From the NCBI GenBank assembly GCA_963770565.1, contig CAVYQE010000011.1, positions 388,072 to 452,071 on the forward strand: a DNA stretch of 64,000 nt, read 5' to 3'. Below are positions 29,443 to 37,759 of the stretch, piece after piece. A program made the position numbers and the translations under genes. The notes beneath the pieces are model-generated. The model was given only the letters and a program-made list of their open reading frames with translations, had not been told where the DNA came from and ran no database searches. The stretch is from an uncultured Actinomycetota bacterium (GTDB lineage: Bacteria > Actinomycetota > Actinomycetes > JAFAQI01). Position 1 is the stretch's first letter, and every line of letters starts with the position of its first letter.

Positions 29443-30015
29443 GTGAGCCTCGACGTGCTCGACTGGCGGCGCCAGGTGGCCGGGCTCTACCGAGCGGTGC
29501 GCGACGAGCCCGATCCGCTGATCGCATACGCCGGTTGGTGCGCCGGCCGGCAGCGCCTGGTCAGCGAGCACCCGGCGTCACCGAATCGCGGCGCGATCGT
29601 GCGACACGCGCCGTACGACCCCACGCTGCGCTTCGACGTCCCCGTCGATCTCGGGGTCGAGCCGGCCAGGCTGGAGATCCCGACCGGCACCGACGGGATC
29701 GTGCCGTTCGAGCGGATCGGGCGGGTCGAGCTCGACGGCGTCGGCAGCCTCGACGTGTGGTGGCTCGACTCCTATGGCGGCGGGGTCTGGCTCCCCATCC
29801 GCGACCGCGCGCCGGACACCTACGGCGGCGGACGCTACGTCCTCGACACGGTCAAGGGCGCCGACCTCGGCGGCAACGCCGGCCGGTTGGTCGTCGACCT
29901 CAACTTCGCCTACAACCCGTCCTGCGCATACGACGAGCACTGGGCCTGCCCGCTCGCGCCGCCGGGCAACGTCGTCGATCGCGAGGTGGTCGCGGGCGAG
30001 CTCGTCCCGGCCTAG
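29443..30015 (+). CDS. DUF1684 family protein
   Basis: Conserved C-terminal NFAYNPSCAYDEHWACP motif. Confidence 0.6.
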   Translation: MSLDVLDWRRQVAGLYRAVRDEPDPLIAYAGWCAGRQRLVSEHPASPNRGAIVRHAPYDPTLRFDVPVDLGVEPARLEIPTGTDGIVPFERIGRVELDGVGSLDVWWLDSYGGGVWLPIRDRAPDTYGGGRYVLDTVKGADLGGNAGRLVVDLNFAYNPSCAYDEHWACPLAPPGNVVDREVVAGELVPA

Positions 30016-31262
30016 TGCGAGGGCTTGGAGTGCGAGGGACTCGCTGACGGCGACTTGCTGGGCTTGGACGTCGGTTTCGAGGACGGCGATGTCGTCGGGT
30101 GTGGCGACGGGCTGGCCGGCGGGCCCGGGGTGGCAACCGGGGGCGGAGTGGTAGCTGGACCGGCCACGTCGACCAGGGTGCCGTAGTCGATCAGCTTGAA
30201 GACCTGCGCGGCGGTCGAAATCGGCAGCTCGAGGCAACCGACCGATTGAGGGAAGCCGTACGACGCGCGTGGGAAGCCGTGTACCGCGGATCCACCGGAG
30301 AAGTAGTTGACCCACGGCACGCCCGGGTCCTTGTACTTGGTGCCGTCGGGGTTGGTGCCGGACATCGTGGTCGAGGTGAAGCGCTCGTACACCGGGTAGG
30401 TGCCGAGCGGAGTCGGTGCGGCCGCGACCCCACCGTTGACCGGGCTGGTGAGAACGGTCTTGCCGGCGACCCAGACCGTGAGCTGCTGCGGCAGGTAAAG
30501 ATTGGCCGAGACGAAGCTGTAGCGATCAGGGTCGTACGCCCGGGCCAGGTCGGCCTTGATCAGGGCGTGCCAGGTGTGCGGCCCGATCGTCCCGTCGAGC
30601 GGCAGGTTGGCCTGGTGCTGGAAGGCGATCACCGCGCCGCGCACCACGATGCCGTACTTCCCCGGCGACCAGCCCTGCTTGAGCGTGCTCGGGGTGTCCG
30701 GGTAGCGCCACGAAAACGAGCCGGCCGGTGGGGTGTAGACGTCGTCGGCTTCCTGCTCGGCGGTCGATGCGGCTGGTGCGGTCGTTGTCAACGGCAGGTA
30801 GCGCAGGTGGGCGAGGATCTGCTCGGCCCGCAGCAGCGAGCCGGTCGGGGTCGCCGGGGTCGCGATCGTCTTGACCGAGCCGCCCGGCTTCTTGGCGTAG
30901 GTGATGGTGACGTTGGTGTCGGGCGGGTAGGCACGGGTGGGGGTGAAGATCGCGGTCGAGCCCTGCCGGGCCCACTGCCCCGGTACGTAGGGCGACAGGG
31001 CCGGAAGCGGCGATTGCGGCGAAAGCACGCCGGCGAACTTGACCGTGATCTGGCCGGTCGCGGACAGCCGCCGATGCGGCTTGACCCACACGACGTCGAG
31101 TGGCTTGGTGTTGGCGGCGGCGCTCGACGACGGATCAGTCGAGCCGCTGTCGCCGTTGGAGCCGGAATGTCCGCCACATCCGGCAAGGGCGACGACGGCG
31201 ATCAGCGCCGCGGTGGCCGCCCAGGCCGACCTGCCGTGGCGCACGATGTGGTCTCCAGCCAT
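30012..31262 (-). CDS. L,D-transpeptidase lipoprotein (YkuD domain) with Pro/Ser/Thr-rich tail
   Basis: Lipobox LAGCGG; catalytic HGFPRASYGFPQSVGCLELP; C-terminal low-complexity PTTSPSSKPTSKPSKSPS. Confidence 0.8.
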   Translation of the reverse strand: MAGDHIVRHGRSAWAATAALIAVVALAGCGGHSGSNGDSGSTDPSSSAAANTKPLDVVWVKPHRRLSATGQITVKFAGVLSPQSPLPALSPYVPGQWARQGSTAIFTPTRAYPPDTNVTITYAKKPGGSVKTIATPATPTGSLLRAEQILAHLRYLPLTTTAPAASTAEQEADDVYTPPAGSFSWRYPDTPSTLKQGWSPGKYGIVVRGAVIAFQHQANLPLDGTIGPHTWHALIKADLARAYDPDRYSFVSANLYLPQQLTVWVAGKTVLTSPVNGGVAAAPTPLGTYPVYERFTSTTMSGTNPDGTKYKDPGVPWVNYFSGGSAVHGFPRASYGFPQSVGCLELPISTAAQVFKLIDYGTLVDVAGPATTPPPVATPGPPASPSPHPTTSPSSKPTSKPSKSPSASPSHSKPSH

Positions 31263-31424
31263 TCATCCCCCGCGAATTCACTCTATGTGAGCCTGCCCAC
31301 TTGTTCGGACGGCCAACACTCCTCGATGGTTCAGTCGTTATAGAGACGTTGCTTGGGTCGGTTTGGTTGACGCCCACCTGATATTCGCGGGCCGGTCGGG
31401 ATCGGTTGCGATAAGATCGAACTC

Positions 31425-31518
31425 GTGGGAACCACCATCTGCTTGCTCCTTCCCGGGCCGCGCTGACCACGCACGACGTCAGCGCGGCGGCCCTCCTTCG
31501 TCGAGGGCCTTTTCTCTG
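31425..31518 (+). promoter_or_regulatory. attenuator-like leuS leader: 13-codon ORF with Leu-Leu-Leu, then two mutually exclusive hairpins, the second followed by TTTTCTCT
   Basis: Mini-ORF GTG31425..TGA31466 (VGTTICLLLPGPR); hairpin A 31456-31494 and hairpin B GGCCCTC-N7-GAGGGCC 31490-31510 share bases 31490-31494; U-rich tract 31511-31518. Confidence 0.35.
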
Positions 31519-31575
31519 CCTAGGTGTCGTCTGGCACCGTGTTCCATCCGAGCACCGGCTTGAGAGCGAGAGACT

Positions 31576-34059
<2,484 letters not shown>

Positions 34060-34153
34060 CGGTCTGGATCCACCGGATCTGCTTCGTGCGCTGGTGTCCA
34101 CAGGCGGGGCGGGCTTGCCCGGATCGGCCGGTCACCTTCCTAGCGTCACGAGC

Positions 34154-35050
34154 ATGGTGCGCCCTGGCCGTTCGACCGAGCTCGACGAGTCGGCATCGGC
34201 GTCGGCGCGCGAGCGGCTGTCCGCGCTCGGGTTGCGGTCACCGCTTGGGGGATGGGTGCCGGAGCCGCCCCAGGCCGACCCGCCGGTCATCGTGGCCGAC
34301 GGTGGACCCACACCTGCAGGAAGCGGGCCGGTCGGAGCGCGACCTGCCCTGCCTCGAGCATCGACACCCGAGATCGGCGAACTGATCCGCGGCTGGGCGC
34401 TGGACCGGTCGCCGCCGTGGCTGCACGGCGTGATCGAACGGCTAGGGCTGCGTGCGGTCTTGGTCGGAGTCATGGTCGCGGTGGCCTGCGTGATTGCCGG
34501 TGTGATGGTGGTCCAGCAGCGATCGCCGGGCACCTACCCAGCGTCCGCCCCGTTGCCGGACGCCGGCGCTTCGGCTCCGAGCTTCGATAGCTCACCGGCG
34601 CCGGTGACCGGCGGCGACGCGACCTCGATCGTCGTCGACGTTGGCGGCCGGGTGCGCAAGCCCGGCCTCGTCACCCTGCCGGCCGGCGCGCGGGTCGCCG
34701 ACGCGATCGCAGCTGCGGGCGGGCCGCTGCACCACCGGGAGATCGCCACGCTTGACCTTGCCGCGCGAGTCAGTGACGGGCAGCTGCTGCTGATCGGTGT
34801 GAAGGCGGCCCCGCCCGGCGGGTCGGACGCGGGCGGTGACGCTTCCGGCACATCGCCGGCGCCGGTCGGGCTGAACTCGGCCACGATGGAGGAGCTCGAG
34901 ACGCTGCCCGGCGTAGGTCCGGTGACCGCGCAGAAGATCATCGACTGGCGCACCGCCCACAACGGGTTTACGAGCGTGATCCAGCTCCAGCAAGTGTCGG
35001 GGATCGGCCCGGCCCGCTACGCCGAGCTCGCCCCACTTGTCACCCCGTGA
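34154..35050 (+). CDS. comEA: competence protein ComEA (SLBB + tandem helix-hairpin-helix)
   Basis: C-terminal NSATMEELETLPGVGPVTAQKIIDWR...QVSGIGPARYAEL HhH motifs; start 34154 (or 34094). Confidence 0.8.
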   Translation: MVRPGRSTELDESASASARERLSALGLRSPLGGWVPEPPQADPPVIVADGGPTPAGSGPVGARPALPRASTPEIGELIRGWALDRSPPWLHGVIERLGLRAVLVGVMVAVACVIAGVMVVQQRSPGTYPASAPLPDAGASAPSFDSSPAPVTGGDATSIVVDVGGRVRKPGLVTLPAGARVADAIAAAGGPLHHREIATLDLAARVSDGQLLLIGVKAAPPGGSDAGGDASGTSPAPVGLNSATMEELETLPGVGPVTAQKIIDWRTAHNGFTSVIQLQQVSGIGPARYAELAPLVTP

Positions 35051-35139: not shown

Positions 35140-35262
35140 TGTGGTTGCCCGACTCACCGTGCGGGCCTGCTGCTCGGTCCACAGGTCCGAGGCGGGGCCG
35201 GTTCGTCCACCGCGTCTTGAGATCCGCGGCGTCGGGCGCGACCGACTCTTAGCGTCGCGGGC

Positions 35263-36771
35263 ATGGGGGACAACAGCCGCGAGGCGGCGCTGAGCGACCG
35301 CCGGCTCGTCGCGGTCGCGATCGGGGTCTGGGCGTCGACGGCCGGGTGCACGTTGCTCGCCGCTCGGACCTCTTTCGCGCTTGCCGGCCTGGGGTCGGTG
35401 GTGGCGCTGCTGGCCCGCCCGCGGAGCACCGGCTCGGCGGTGGTGATCGCCGCGGTGGCCCTCGGGGTGGTGCTGGGCTCAGTGGTGGCCGCCTGGCACG
35501 TGCGCGCGCTGCACGGCGGTGTCGTGCCGAAGCTCGCCGCGCGACATAGCGAGGCCGACCTCGTGGTCCGGCTGGTGCGCGATCCGGTCGCCGTCGTGTC
35601 CAGCGCGGGCGGCGGGCTGACCCTCACCGACGCGACCGTCACCTCGGTGCTCACCACCGGCTGGCGGCAGGCCGACTCGCCGATCCTGGTCCTGTCGTAC
35701 GGCCGAGGCTGGGTCGGGCTGCTGCCGGGGCAACGGGTGGAGGTCTCGGGCCGGCTTGCACCCCCGCGCCGCGGAGATGACGTCGCCGCGGTCCTCGATG
35801 CGCGCGGCCCACCGTCCCTGATCGGCCGGCCACCGTGGTGGCAGCGGCTGGCCGGTCGAGCGAGGGCCGCGCTTCGAGCTGCCTGCCAGGGTCTGCCGGG
35901 GGATGTGCGCGGCCTGCTGCCCGGTCTCGTCGACGGTGACGTGTCTGCCGTGCCTGCCTCGGTGCAAGCAGATATGCGGCTCACCGGCCTCACGCACTTG
36001 GAGGCGGTCTCGGGGGAGAACGTGAGCGTCGTCCTGGCGGTCACGGTCGCCCTTGCCCAACTGCTCGGGTTGCGCCGGCGCTGGCGAATCGGGGTGGCGG
36101 CGATGGCGCTCCTCGGCTTCGTCGTGCTGGCTCGGCCGTCTCCGAGCGTGCTGCGCGCGGCGGTCATGGGTGGCATCGTGCTTGCCGGCCTCGCGCTTGG
36201 CCGCCGGGTCAGGCCACTTCGGGCGCTCGCGCTTGCCGTCACGTTGCTGCTCGGCTTGAACCCGTTCCTCGGCCGGTCGGTCGGGTTCGTGCTTTCGGTG
36301 TGTGCAACGGGCGCTCTGGTGACGGTCGCGCCGATCTGGACGGAGCGGCTGGCTCGGCACTTGCCCCGGCCGGTTGCGGTCGCGATCGCGGTGCCGGCGG
36401 CGGCACAGGTCGCCTGTACGCCGGTGCTCGTGCTGGCGTTCGGCATGCTCACGCCGTATGCGATCCCGGCCAACTTGCTGGCGGCACCGGCGGTCGCACC
36501 GGCCACCGTGCTCGGGGTCCTGTGCGCGGCGTTCGCCACGGTCTGCCGGCCACTCGCGGCACCGATCGCGTGGCTGGCCGCCATACCGACCGAGGCGATT
36601 GCCGTTGTTGCGCGAGGTCTGGCCGGTCTGCCCGGCGCGGGACTGAGGTGCCCGGGCGGCCCGGCCGCAGCTGTGCTCGCAACGGTGGCCGTCGGGGTCG
36701 TCCTCGGGGTTCGCCGGCGCCGGGCGATCGAGTCCGGCCGGCGTGACATCCTTGGCGGATGGCCGCCCTGA
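35263..36771 (+). CDS. comEC: ComEC/Rec2 competence channel protein, short form without C-terminal metallo-beta-lactamase domain
   Basis: Polytopic membrane protein with DUF4131/competence-domain signatures; ends where holA begins. Confidence 0.8.
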   Translation: MGDNSREAALSDRRLVAVAIGVWASTAGCTLLAARTSFALAGLGSVVALLARPRSTGSAVVIAAVALGVVLGSVVAAWHVRALHGGVVPKLAARHSEADLVVRLVRDPVAVVSSAGGGLTLTDATVTSVLTTGWRQADSPILVLSYGRGWVGLLPGQRVEVSGRLAPPRRGDDVAAVLDARGPPSLIGRPPWWQRLAGRARAALRAACQGLPGDVRGLLPGLVDGDVSAVPASVQADMRLTGLTHLEAVSGENVSVVLAVTVALAQLLGLRRRWRIGVAAMALLGFVVLARPSPSVLRAAVMGGIVLAGLALGRRVRPLRALALAVTLLLGLNPFLGRSVGFVLSVCATGALVTVAPIWTERLARHLPRPVAVAIAVPAAAQVACTPVLVLAFGMLTPYAIPANLLAAPAVAPATVLGVLCAAFATVCRPLAAPIAWLAAIPTEAIAVVARGLAGLPGAGLRCPGGPAAAVLATVAVGVVLGVRRRRAIESGRRDILGGWPP

Positions 36772-37721
36772 CCGTCGTCGTCGGCGATGAGGACCTGCTG
36801 GTCGCCCGGGCGGTGAGCCGCACGATTGCGGCCGCAGCTGCGGCGTCCGCCGATGCTGAGGCCGTCCCTACCGTCACCCTCGATGCCGCCCAGGTGTCGG
36901 TGGACGCACTCGCCGAGGCGCTGGCCCCGTCGTTGTTCGCCGAGGACCGGTCGATCGTCGTCCGCAACCTTCAGGATGCCGACAAGGATCTGGTGGCCGC
37001 TCTCGTCGGCTTCGCCGAAGCGCCCGAGCCGGGGGTCACGATCGTCGCCGTGCACGCCGGCGGCGCGAAGGGCAAAGCGGCGCTGGAGGCGATTCGGGAA
37101 GGCGCCGCCGAGGTGGTTACGGTCGCCCCGATCAAGACGCTGCGGGACCGTGAGCAGTTCGCGGTCGACGAGGTGAGGGCCGCCGGTGGGAGCCTCGATC
37201 GCGATGCGGCGGCTGAGCTGGTCGGCGCGATCGGCACCGACCTGCGCGAGATCGCGACCGCGTCCGCCCAGCTGGTCGCGGACGTCGGCGGCCAGATCAC
37301 CACCGCCGATGTCGCGACGTACTACCGCGGCCGCGCCGAGTCGACCGGGTTCGCGGTTGCCGATCGGGCGGTCGAAGGCGACCTCGCAGCCGCCCTCGAG
37401 ACGCTGCGCTGGGCGTTCGCGACCGGGCTCGACCCCATCTTGGTGAGCAGCTCGCTGGCGGCGAACCTGAGGTTGATCGCCCAGGTCGGCGCGGCCGGCC
37501 CCGGTTCGCCCGACGCGATCGCGGCGAAGCTGCGGATGCCGGCCTGGAAGGTGCGCCGGGCCCAGGGCTGGCTTCGCCACTGGCGACCCGAAGCGGTCGG
37601 TGAGGCGGTGTTGGCGGTCGCCGCCGCCGACGCGGATCTCAAAGGCGCCGCCGACGACGCGGCGTACGCCGTGGAGCGCGCTGTGCTCAAGGTCGCCGCT
37701 GCCGCCAGTCCGGGCGGCTAG
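36759..37721 (+). CDS. holA: DNA polymerase III delta subunit
   Basis: Conserved comEA-comEC-holA synteny; delta-subunit N-terminal fold sequence. Confidence 0.85.
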   Translation: MAALTVVVGDEDLLVARAVSRTIAAAAAASADAEAVPTVTLDAAQVSVDALAEALAPSLFAEDRSIVVRNLQDADKDLVAALVGFAEAPEPGVTIVAVHAGGAKGKAALEAIREGAAEVVTVAPIKTLRDREQFAVDEVRAAGGSLDRDAAAELVGAIGTDLREIATASAQLVADVGGQITTADVATYYRGRAESTGFAVADRAVEGDLAAALETLRWAFATGLDPILVSSSLAANLRLIAQVGAAGPGSPDAIAAKLRMPAWKVRRAQGWLRHWRPEAVGEAVLAVAAADADLKGAADDAAYAVERAVLKVAAAASPGG

Positions 37722-37759
37722 CTCCACGCGACGCGCGCCGGCCCGCACCACCCGCAGTC

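Follow-up and report, generated by a model that had tools for sequence, protein, structure and literature searches.

The sequence upstream of leuS in an uncultured Actinomycetota bacterium (GenBank assembly GCA_963770565.1, contig CAVYQE010000011.1, positions 388,072 to 452,071) raises two questions: whether transcription of this gene is set by a ribosome translating a short, leucine-containing open reading frame (ORF), and, if so, how that ribosome could act on a terminator hairpin that seems free to fold wherever the ribosome stands. We refer to the whole stretch of 64,000 nucleotides (nt) as the window and number positions from its first base; the full element spans 31407-31517 and comprises a promoter-like box, the leader ORF, two adjacent hairpins (A and B) and a short U-tract. 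The element is, in our view, probably an attenuator of leuS transcription that senses leucine through a translating ribosome and is homologous to the Streptomyces leuL2 leader; this reading is supported by the conserved TAnnnT box, the CTT codon, an 8 nt spacing between Leu codon and hairpin, a linker of 0-3 nt between the hairpins, and the covariation of both.

Architecture and conservation of the leader

The leader ORF (leuL-like; 31425..31466, + strand) has 13 codons and a stop, GTG GGA ACC ACC ATC TGC TTG CTC CTT CCC GGG CCG CGC TGA, and encodes VGTTICLLLPGPR-stop. Its three consecutive Leu codons TTG CTC CTT (31443..31451, +), the putative regulatory codons, are all minor ones by codon counts and lie just before hairpin A, and the stop TGA (31464-31466) falls inside the 5' arm of that hairpin (31457-31467). 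The ORF itself is exactly as the initial annotation had read it from the sequence, and orthologous short ORFs lie upstream of leuS in related loci.

Both hairpins reported at the outset exist, with coordinates that had been set one base too high. Hairpin A (31457..31488, +) has an 11 bp stem formed by GCCGCGCTGAC (31457-31467) and GTCAGCGCGGC (31478-31488) around a 10 nt loop, and is supported by the minimum-free-energy (MFE) fold, by RNAalifold and by covariation; the extended register first placed at 31456-31494 really runs from 31455, where its GGGCC begins, to 31493, the end of its 3' arm. Hairpin B (31489..31509, +, rather than 31490-31510) is the stem of an intrinsic terminator, with GGCCCTC (31489-31495) pairing with GAGGGCC (31503-31509) around a 7 nt loop, as found in the folds and in a terminator scan that returned two terminator-like sites, B among them, against 0.4 expected from shuffled sequences. 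With the last base of the A core at 31488 and the first of B at 31489, the linker between them in the window is 0 nt. From energy differences between masked folds, A is worth approximately -22 kcal/mol and B approximately -13 to -14 kcal/mol, and the 181 nt region folds better than all 200 of its dinucleotide shuffles (z = -2.75). Hairpin B is followed by the short interrupted U-tract TTTTCTCT (31510..31517, +), identified from the sequence, the terminator scan and the T-rich tracts that follow B in relatives. The distance from the end of this tract to the leuS ATG is 61 nt, in agreement with the first estimate of approximately 60 nt.

The regulated gene, leuS (leucine--tRNA ligase; 31579..34059, +), is identified by the TIGR00396 leuS_bact model at 932 bits against a cut-off of 548, and by alignment of its N-terminus with those of relatives; its ATG is at 31579, with an alternative in-frame GTG start at 31576.

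A genome scan with the LeuS N-terminus yielded 80 actinobacterial loci, the best matches being Mycobacteriales and Frankiaceae metagenome-assembled genomes (MAGs) with 90% and 87% identity. Simple parsing recovered one architecture in 56 of these loci, which together with the window give a set of 57 leaders: a TAnnnT box is followed after 6-7 nt by the ATG or GTG of an ORF, mostly of 8-13 codons with an LL or LLL run, and then by hairpins A and B and a T-run. Across the leaders hairpin A is GC-rich with a base of the form GCCGC...GCGGC, and its interior is hypervariable in both sequence and length (20-58 nt); hairpin B is typically GCCCCTC...GAGGGGC. A single nucleotide separates the two hairpins in 33 leaders; 11 have no linker at all, 12 have one of 2 nt and one has 3 nt.

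A covariance model (R1), built from an alignment (A1) of 23 diverse members with the window among the seed, matches the window once in 64 kb, at 31407-31520 (69.6 bits, E ~1e-13). In 66 of the 80 loci it finds exactly one match, on the leuS strand and just upstream of leuS, and these positive loci come from Mycobacteriales and Frankiaceae MAGs, Propionibacteriales, Micrococcaceae and Actinomadura; the 44 that were not in the seed score 23.8-86.7 bits, those of Actinomadura 55-63 bits. The RNAalifold consensus contains both A and B. In a 67-sequence alignment 95.2% of the cells pair and nine of the 14 pairs change on both sides, values that none of 500 shuffles reached, and partners slid by 1-3 columns pair at only 42-53%. 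Hairpin A contributes most of this variation (seven of nine modelled pairs change on both sides, with 94% of cells paired), and hairpin B has two such pairs and 97% of cells paired. The alignment of leuS leaders that had been proposed as a check thus bears the prediction out, in that A and B covary and relatives retain the LL or LLL runs but vary in the rest of the peptide.

When metagenomes were scanned with the motif CTYCTTCCNGGNCCGCGCTGA, 109 stretches were obtained; 87 were unique with enough flanking sequence, and 50 of those had both a -10 box and an ORF. A LeuS N-terminus lies downstream in 49 of these 50 leader-like matches. The closest of them (L116, with 93% identity in the LeuS N-terminus) encodes VSATRCLLLPGPR-stop, and when it is aligned with the window, conservation in the leader is confined to the promoter box, the run of Leu codons, both hairpins and the U-tract. 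The two have diverged in the spacer before leuS and in the codons for the N-terminus of the mini-ORF. No Rfam family matches 31150-31700 at E = 1 or better, apart from chance matches at 12-16 bits, and nothing in the whole 64 kb window reaches the gathering thresholds. Judged by the layout of its peptide and by the Actinomadura leaders, the Streptomyces leuS leader is probably a member of a much wider actinobacterial family for which Rfam has no model.

The promoter-like box is an extended -10-like sequence, TGCGA-TAAGAT (TGCGATAAGAT; 31407..31417, +, with its hexamer at 31412-31417), recognized from the sequence and from its conservation in relatives, and the leader GTG at 31425 sits 7 nt downstream of the hexamer. 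A TAnnnT box lies 6-7 nt before the leader start codon, whether ATG or GTG, in all 57 leaders, usually in the form TGCGnTAnnnT, and the block is conserved both in alignment A1 and between the window and L116. We take TGCGnTAnnnT to resemble the extended -10 consensus of corynebacterial sigma-A promoters. This spacing implies a predicted transcription start at or next to 31425, and hence a leaderless leader ORF, which accounts for a feature that had been listed as a weakness: there is indeed no Shine-Dalgarno (SD) sequence before the GTG, and none would be needed on a leaderless transcript. The homologous leader of S. lividans has been mapped as leaderless (Droste et al., 2021; PMC8079986).

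In two loci, L001 (1370-1510) and L011 (1470-1510), the leader and terminator are entirely missing, and leuS itself has an in-frame GTG with a -10-like box 6 nt ahead of it (L001, TAGGAT-cgtgcg-GTG; L011, TAGAAT-cgccgg-GTG). This arrangement suggests a leaderless leuS mRNA and the evolutionary gain or loss of an attenuator cassette between promoter and gene.

The Leu codons are the best-preserved part of the peptide, and orthologous short ORFs with an LL or LLL run precede leuS in most related loci while their other residues vary. The last leader Leu codon is CTT in 54 of the 57 leaders, and CTT makes up 84 of the 150 codons (56%) in the Leu runs. In the leuS genes at these loci it accounts for only 3.3% of Leu codons, and in that of the window for none of the 71. 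In 51 of the 57 leaders, including the window, the distance from the first base of the last Leu codon to the first pair of hairpin A is 8 nt. A bias to rare codons combined with a fixed distance from Leu codon to hairpin are hallmarks of sensing. The stop codon, by comparison, has no fixed place, and its position counted from the first base of A ranges from -2 to +25: short forms such as MRAILLLS-stop and M..LLT-stop have it 2 nt before A, long forms 7-25 nt inside A. At three loci (L019:1267-1320, L015:813-857 and L058:1322-1375) the usual stop has been lost and the ORF runs 10-25 nt into hairpin A, the stop-loss members encoding MRAILLLSQPPGIRNNG-stop and VQHQLLLGWPRRRS-stop; the spacing from Leu codon to hairpin is unchanged in them, which shows that the constrained feature is not the stop position.

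Some members depart from the common pattern. Two Glutamicibacter leaders (L026:1337-1433 and L034:1254-1351) are degenerate, with weak model scores of 24-28 bits, and their mini-ORF (MNSQHNLA-stop in L034) has a single Leu codon, the very rare CTA, before both hairpins; in L047, L057 and L075 the Leu run is interrupted (LQL, LVL). Two other roles for the coding sequence were considered and rejected. A C-terminal Pro-Arg-stop acting as an arrest peptide is at odds with the short-ORF members, which carry the same CCGCG untranslated after the stop, and with Actinomadura, in which changes to CCA CGT in the 5' arm of hairpin A are compensated in its 3' arm; together these indicate that the 'PR' is a by-product of the 5' arm (CCG CGC) being read in frame. 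Frameshifting by -1 on the Leu codons, which the 5 nt spacer to the hairpin had brought into consideration, finds no conserved slippery heptamer.

Sequence following the B stem is kept in relatives beyond a plain T-run, as TTTT(T)CATGTCC, TTTTGTGTGTCCGG or TTTTGCATGTC, and the window (31510-31525) has TTTTCTCTGCC; among relatives L002-L080 the loop of hairpin B, too, repeatedly contains CATG or GTG. The conserved post-stem sequence could be a termination or pause context, or could reflect pairing between the loop and downstream sequence. In the Arthrobacter-type loci of the Micrococcaceae (for example L036:1356-1500 and L042:1263-1500) the leader terminator and leuS are separated by 130-250 nt, and this extra stretch contains partly conserved segments able to form hairpins (CCGGG...CCCGG; GGCCGTTATGGCAGCAC...GCCGTAAC), which may represent a second regulatory layer or a promoter.

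Hairpins A and B and a proposed mechanism of attenuation

The initial annotation had held that A and B share nucleotides and cannot both form. We find instead that both are present in the MFE, centroid and RNAalifold consensus structures. The only register of A that overlaps B pairs GGGCC (31455-31459) with GGCCC (31489-31493) across a 3 nt bulge and is energetically inferior, and the 5 nt overlap that it creates in the window is not conserved across the family. The attenuator design put forward for leuS therefore stands as regards the Leu ORF, hairpin A, terminator B and their spacing, which are conserved (66 of 80 loci, 49 of 50 metagenomic matches), but not as regards an antiterminator sharing nucleotides with the terminator, which is absent. 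On geometry alone, hairpin A would behave as a ribosome-sensed helix, remaining intact with CUU in the A site, opening step by step once the ribosome advances, and being fully melted by a ribosome at the stop codon. By analogy with the trp paradigm, A would take the role of segment 2:3.

The sequence of events that we envisage begins with transcription initiating approximately 7 nt after TGCGATAAGAT, so that the RNA would start at the GTG of the 13-codon leaderless ORF with its three minor Leu codons UUG CUC CUU. We infer the direction of regulation as follows. When charged tRNA-Leu is plentiful, the ribosome would run into A as far as the UGA in its 5' arm and melt it, and terminator B with its U-tract would then stop RNA polymerase 61 nt before leuS. 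If charged tRNA-Leu runs short, the ribosome would wait at the Leu codons, and with CUU in the A site the start of A would lie at approximately +12 from the P site. Structural studies of ribosomes have established the position at approximately +12 from the P-site codon as that of the mRNA entrance and helicase site. Hairpin A would thus be held at the entrance of the waiting ribosome and stay intact, termination at B would fall, and leuS would be transcribed.

How an intact A might counteract B is a matter on which we are more tentative. Our best guess, for which we would still claim only a minority of the probability, is a steric effect that involves no competition for base pairs. Because A abuts both the stalled ribosome and, through a linker of 0-3 nt, hairpin B, the bottom of B might be unable to seat in the RNA exit channel, where its base would need to sit approximately 9 nt from the RNA 3' end; once A had been turned into a single-stranded spacer by a ribosome running through, termination would be permitted. 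In the window, the shift to the GGGCC/GGCCC register may add a small competing contribution, and A may also, as a pause hairpin, keep ribosome and polymerase in step over the approximately 93 nt between the predicted start site and the terminator U-tract. If the steric mechanism holds, the default for an untranslated leader would be read-through, the opposite of classical superattenuation, and insertion of a spacer between A and B should abolish antitermination. It is rather doubtful, and a little more so than the steric mechanism itself, that the leuS leaders constitute a distinct, non-canonical class of attenuator that works without base-pair competition and is spread over several actinobacterial orders.

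Several observations weigh against the attenuator reading. Partition functions were calculated for the 57 leaders without a ribosome, with one holding the first or the last Leu codon in its A site, and with one that has reached the stop codon; in the window the B stem forms with a mean probability of 0.95-1.00 under all of these masks, and in nearly all 57 leaders, masked or not, the mean exceeds 0.85. In truncated transcripts that end before the 3' arm of B, with a ribosome at the last Leu codon, the 5' arm of B is unpaired in the MFE structure of 53 of the 57, including the window. These masked partition functions and truncated transcripts thus disclosed no base-pair antiterminator overlapping B in the 57 leaders, and we know of no attenuator for which a steric mechanism has been demonstrated. 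The U-tract is short, four U followed by CUCU, as had been recognized from the start. The closest relative, L001, with 90% LeuS identity, is without the element, which must therefore be dispensable. Finally, the proposed homology with Streptomyces draws on the published layout of the peptide and on the Actinomadura intermediates rather than on a nucleotide alignment.

By inspection, we found no conserved complementarity between the 3' arm of A and the sequence after the U-tract, or between the leader CUCCUU and the SD region of leuS. Pairing of the CUCCUU of the Leu codons with the 3' arm of B was rejected, having the wrong regulatory logic and being much weaker than B itself.

Other explanations for the element

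A classical mechanism, in which the extended form of A (GGGCC 31455-31459 with GGCCC 31489-31493) is the antiterminator and sequesters five of the seven nt of the B 5' arm when the ribosome stalls, is the reading of the initial annotation. The window and several close relatives (L116, L104, L117 and L164) do contain the complementary triple GGGCC / GGCCC / GGGCC, and Seliverstov et al. (PMC1262725) pointed to similar GGCC triples in trp attenuators of actinobacteria and assigned antiterminator hairpins to leuS of Streptomyces. We nevertheless regard base-pair competition as unlikely here. The MFE, centroid and ensemble structures keep the 11 bp A and B side by side, the masks leave B folded, and the 5' arm of B is unpaired before its 3' arm exists; moreover a ribosome stalled at the second or third Leu codon would cover 31455-31459 in any case. 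The Arthrobacter and Propionibacteriales types have no G-run before A and most members lack the overlap, yet the adjacency of A and B is strictly conserved even where the overlap is absent. That B always folds could also be taken to mean that the element is a constitutive small transcript, an independent small ORF, small RNA or decoy whose Leu codons have no sensing role, with the leuS promoter located downstream of 31517. Attenuator-derived RNAs can act in trans in other bacteria, according to the rnTrpL papers, and the 130-250 nt between terminator and leuS in the Arthrobacter-type loci leaves room for another promoter. Such a transcript is quite improbable given its strict linkage to leuS across orders, a peptide that is not conserved except for its Leu codons, and the rare-codon bias and fixed spacing described above. 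In the window there are only 61 nt from the U-tract to leuS, in which a scan limited to the sigma-70 consensus found no promoter-like site, and the TAnnnT-N6-GTG placed directly on leuS in L001 and L011, which have no element, suggests that the same promoter normally drives leuS through the leader.

Control at the level of translation or polarity without regulated termination, in which stalling on the upstream ORF alters leuS translation or mRNA stability and B is merely structural, seems to us very improbable. It has a parallel in mycobacteria, where leaderless short ORFs with codon runs attenuate downstream genes according to a preprint (bioRxiv 10.1101/834739), and the actinobacterial U-tracts are weak here. 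The GC-rich stem and T-run are nonetheless conserved, and the authors of the S. lividans study judged the hairpin and U stretch there to promote Rho-independent termination (PMC8079986). In addition, the leader stop lies between 113 nt (in the window) and approximately 310 nt (in relatives) from the leuS start, with unconserved sequence in between, so that translational coupling or unmasking of a ribosome-binding site is unlikely. Almost no weight attaches to a tRNA-sensing T-box or other known riboswitch, in spite of the fact that T-boxes control leuS in Firmicutes and ileS in Actinobacteria (PMC1262725). A leader of approximately 93 nt from start site to terminator is too short for a T-box, and the interior of hairpin A is hypervariable at 20-58 nt. 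A T-box fold had been named in advance as a finding that would overturn the attenuator, and was looked for with covariance models; the T-box model gave no match even at E <= 10 in 31150-31700, and none at gathering thresholds in the 64 kb window. Ribosome-mediated, leucine-responsive attenuation remains the probable function of the leuS leader.

Gene context and comparison with known systems

The neighbour upstream of the leader, at 30012-31262 on the minus strand, is divergent and encodes a lipoprotein with an N-terminal LAGC lipobox, a peptidoglycan-binding domain and a YkuD L,D-transpeptidase domain, for which there is no NCBIfam match; because of its orientation, hairpin B cannot be the terminator of this gene, and that possibility was ruled out. 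An intergenic block at 31328-31372, GGTTCAgTCGTTATaGAGACGTTGC ... TTTGGTTGACG, is kept between the window and L116 while its flanks have diverged; it is too far upstream to be the -35 region of the leader promoter, and may serve the divergent L,D-transpeptidase gene as promoter or operator, or be the site of a regulator. Directly 3' of leuS is a gene for a comEA-like helix-hairpin-helix protein (34094-35050, +), followed by an ORF of 865 amino acids (35154-37751, -) that has neither a Pfam nor an NCBIfam match.

As an instance, the element in the window is a routine addition to a known regulatory class. The consistently leaderless nature predicted for its leader ORF would make the family a clean natural case of leaderless translation coupled to the control of transcription, and the rigid geometry of ribosome, hairpin and terminator, with no overlapping antiterminator, poses a testable mechanistic question. 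The element can help to annotate leuS regulation in actinobacterial genomes, and could affect responses to antibiotics that target leucyl-tRNA synthetase (LeuRS).

The initial annotation had stated that attenuation of leuS is not a described mechanism in high-GC actinobacteria, which is mistaken. Seliverstov et al. predicted in 2005 that leuS of S. coelicolor and that of S. avermitilis are preceded by classical attenuators, and noted the parallel with pheST in the gamma-proteobacteria (PMC1262725). Droste et al. (2021) described from RNA-seq the S. lividans leuL2, MRAVRLLLSEPR-stop, a leaderless ORF with a hairpin and U stretch between it and leuS (PMC8079986). Full-text literature searches found no other paper on a leuS leader peptide. 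Within the literature searched, the breadth of the family (Micrococcaceae, Propionibacteriales, Frankiaceae- and Mycobacteriales-type MAGs, and Actinomadura) and the absence of an overlapping antiterminator from leuS leaders both appear to be undocumented.

The closest counterpart is therefore the Streptomyces leuL2 leader, which resembles that of the window in the gene regulated, in an ORF of 12-13 codons with the layout LLL-x-x-PR-stop (MRAVRLLLSEPR and VGTTICLLLPGPR, respectively), in its start, mapped as leaderless there and predicted to be so here, and in a hairpin followed by a U stretch; Actinomadura intermediates (M.ARLLL.RPR-stop), which R1 matches, form a bridge to Streptomyces. The window differs in its lineage, that of an uncultured Mycobacteriales- or Frankiaceae-like organism, its GTG start and its first Leu codon, TTG, and its terminator stem is GGCCCTC instead of the GCCCCTC usual in the family. 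As in the enterobacterial attenuators (trp, leu and pheST), its short ORF contains consecutive codons for the cognate amino acid, which are rare here just as they are in the leu leader of E. coli, an intrinsic terminator precedes the structural gene, and the fate of a hairpin would depend on where the ribosome stands; pheST provides the precedent for an attenuated aminoacyl-tRNA synthetase gene (PMC1262725). Unlike them, it has no 1:2 protector hairpin, its hairpin A abuts the terminator with no overlap, its ORF is predicted to be leaderless rather than led by an SD sequence, and its spacing from Leu codon to hairpin is much tighter, at 8 nt. The leuS T-box of Firmicutes has the same logic, in which low levels of charged tRNA-Leu lead to more LeuRS through read-through of a leader terminator, but its sensor is an uncharged tRNA bound by an RNA of 200-300 nt and not a translating ribosome. 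The polycysteine upstream ORFs of mycobacteria (bioRxiv 10.1101/834739) are short ORFs, leaderless as the one here is predicted to be, with a run of one type of codon upstream of the genes that they control; they sense cysteine and are reported there to have no canonical terminator, whereas the leuS leader of the window ends in a conserved hairpin and U-tract.

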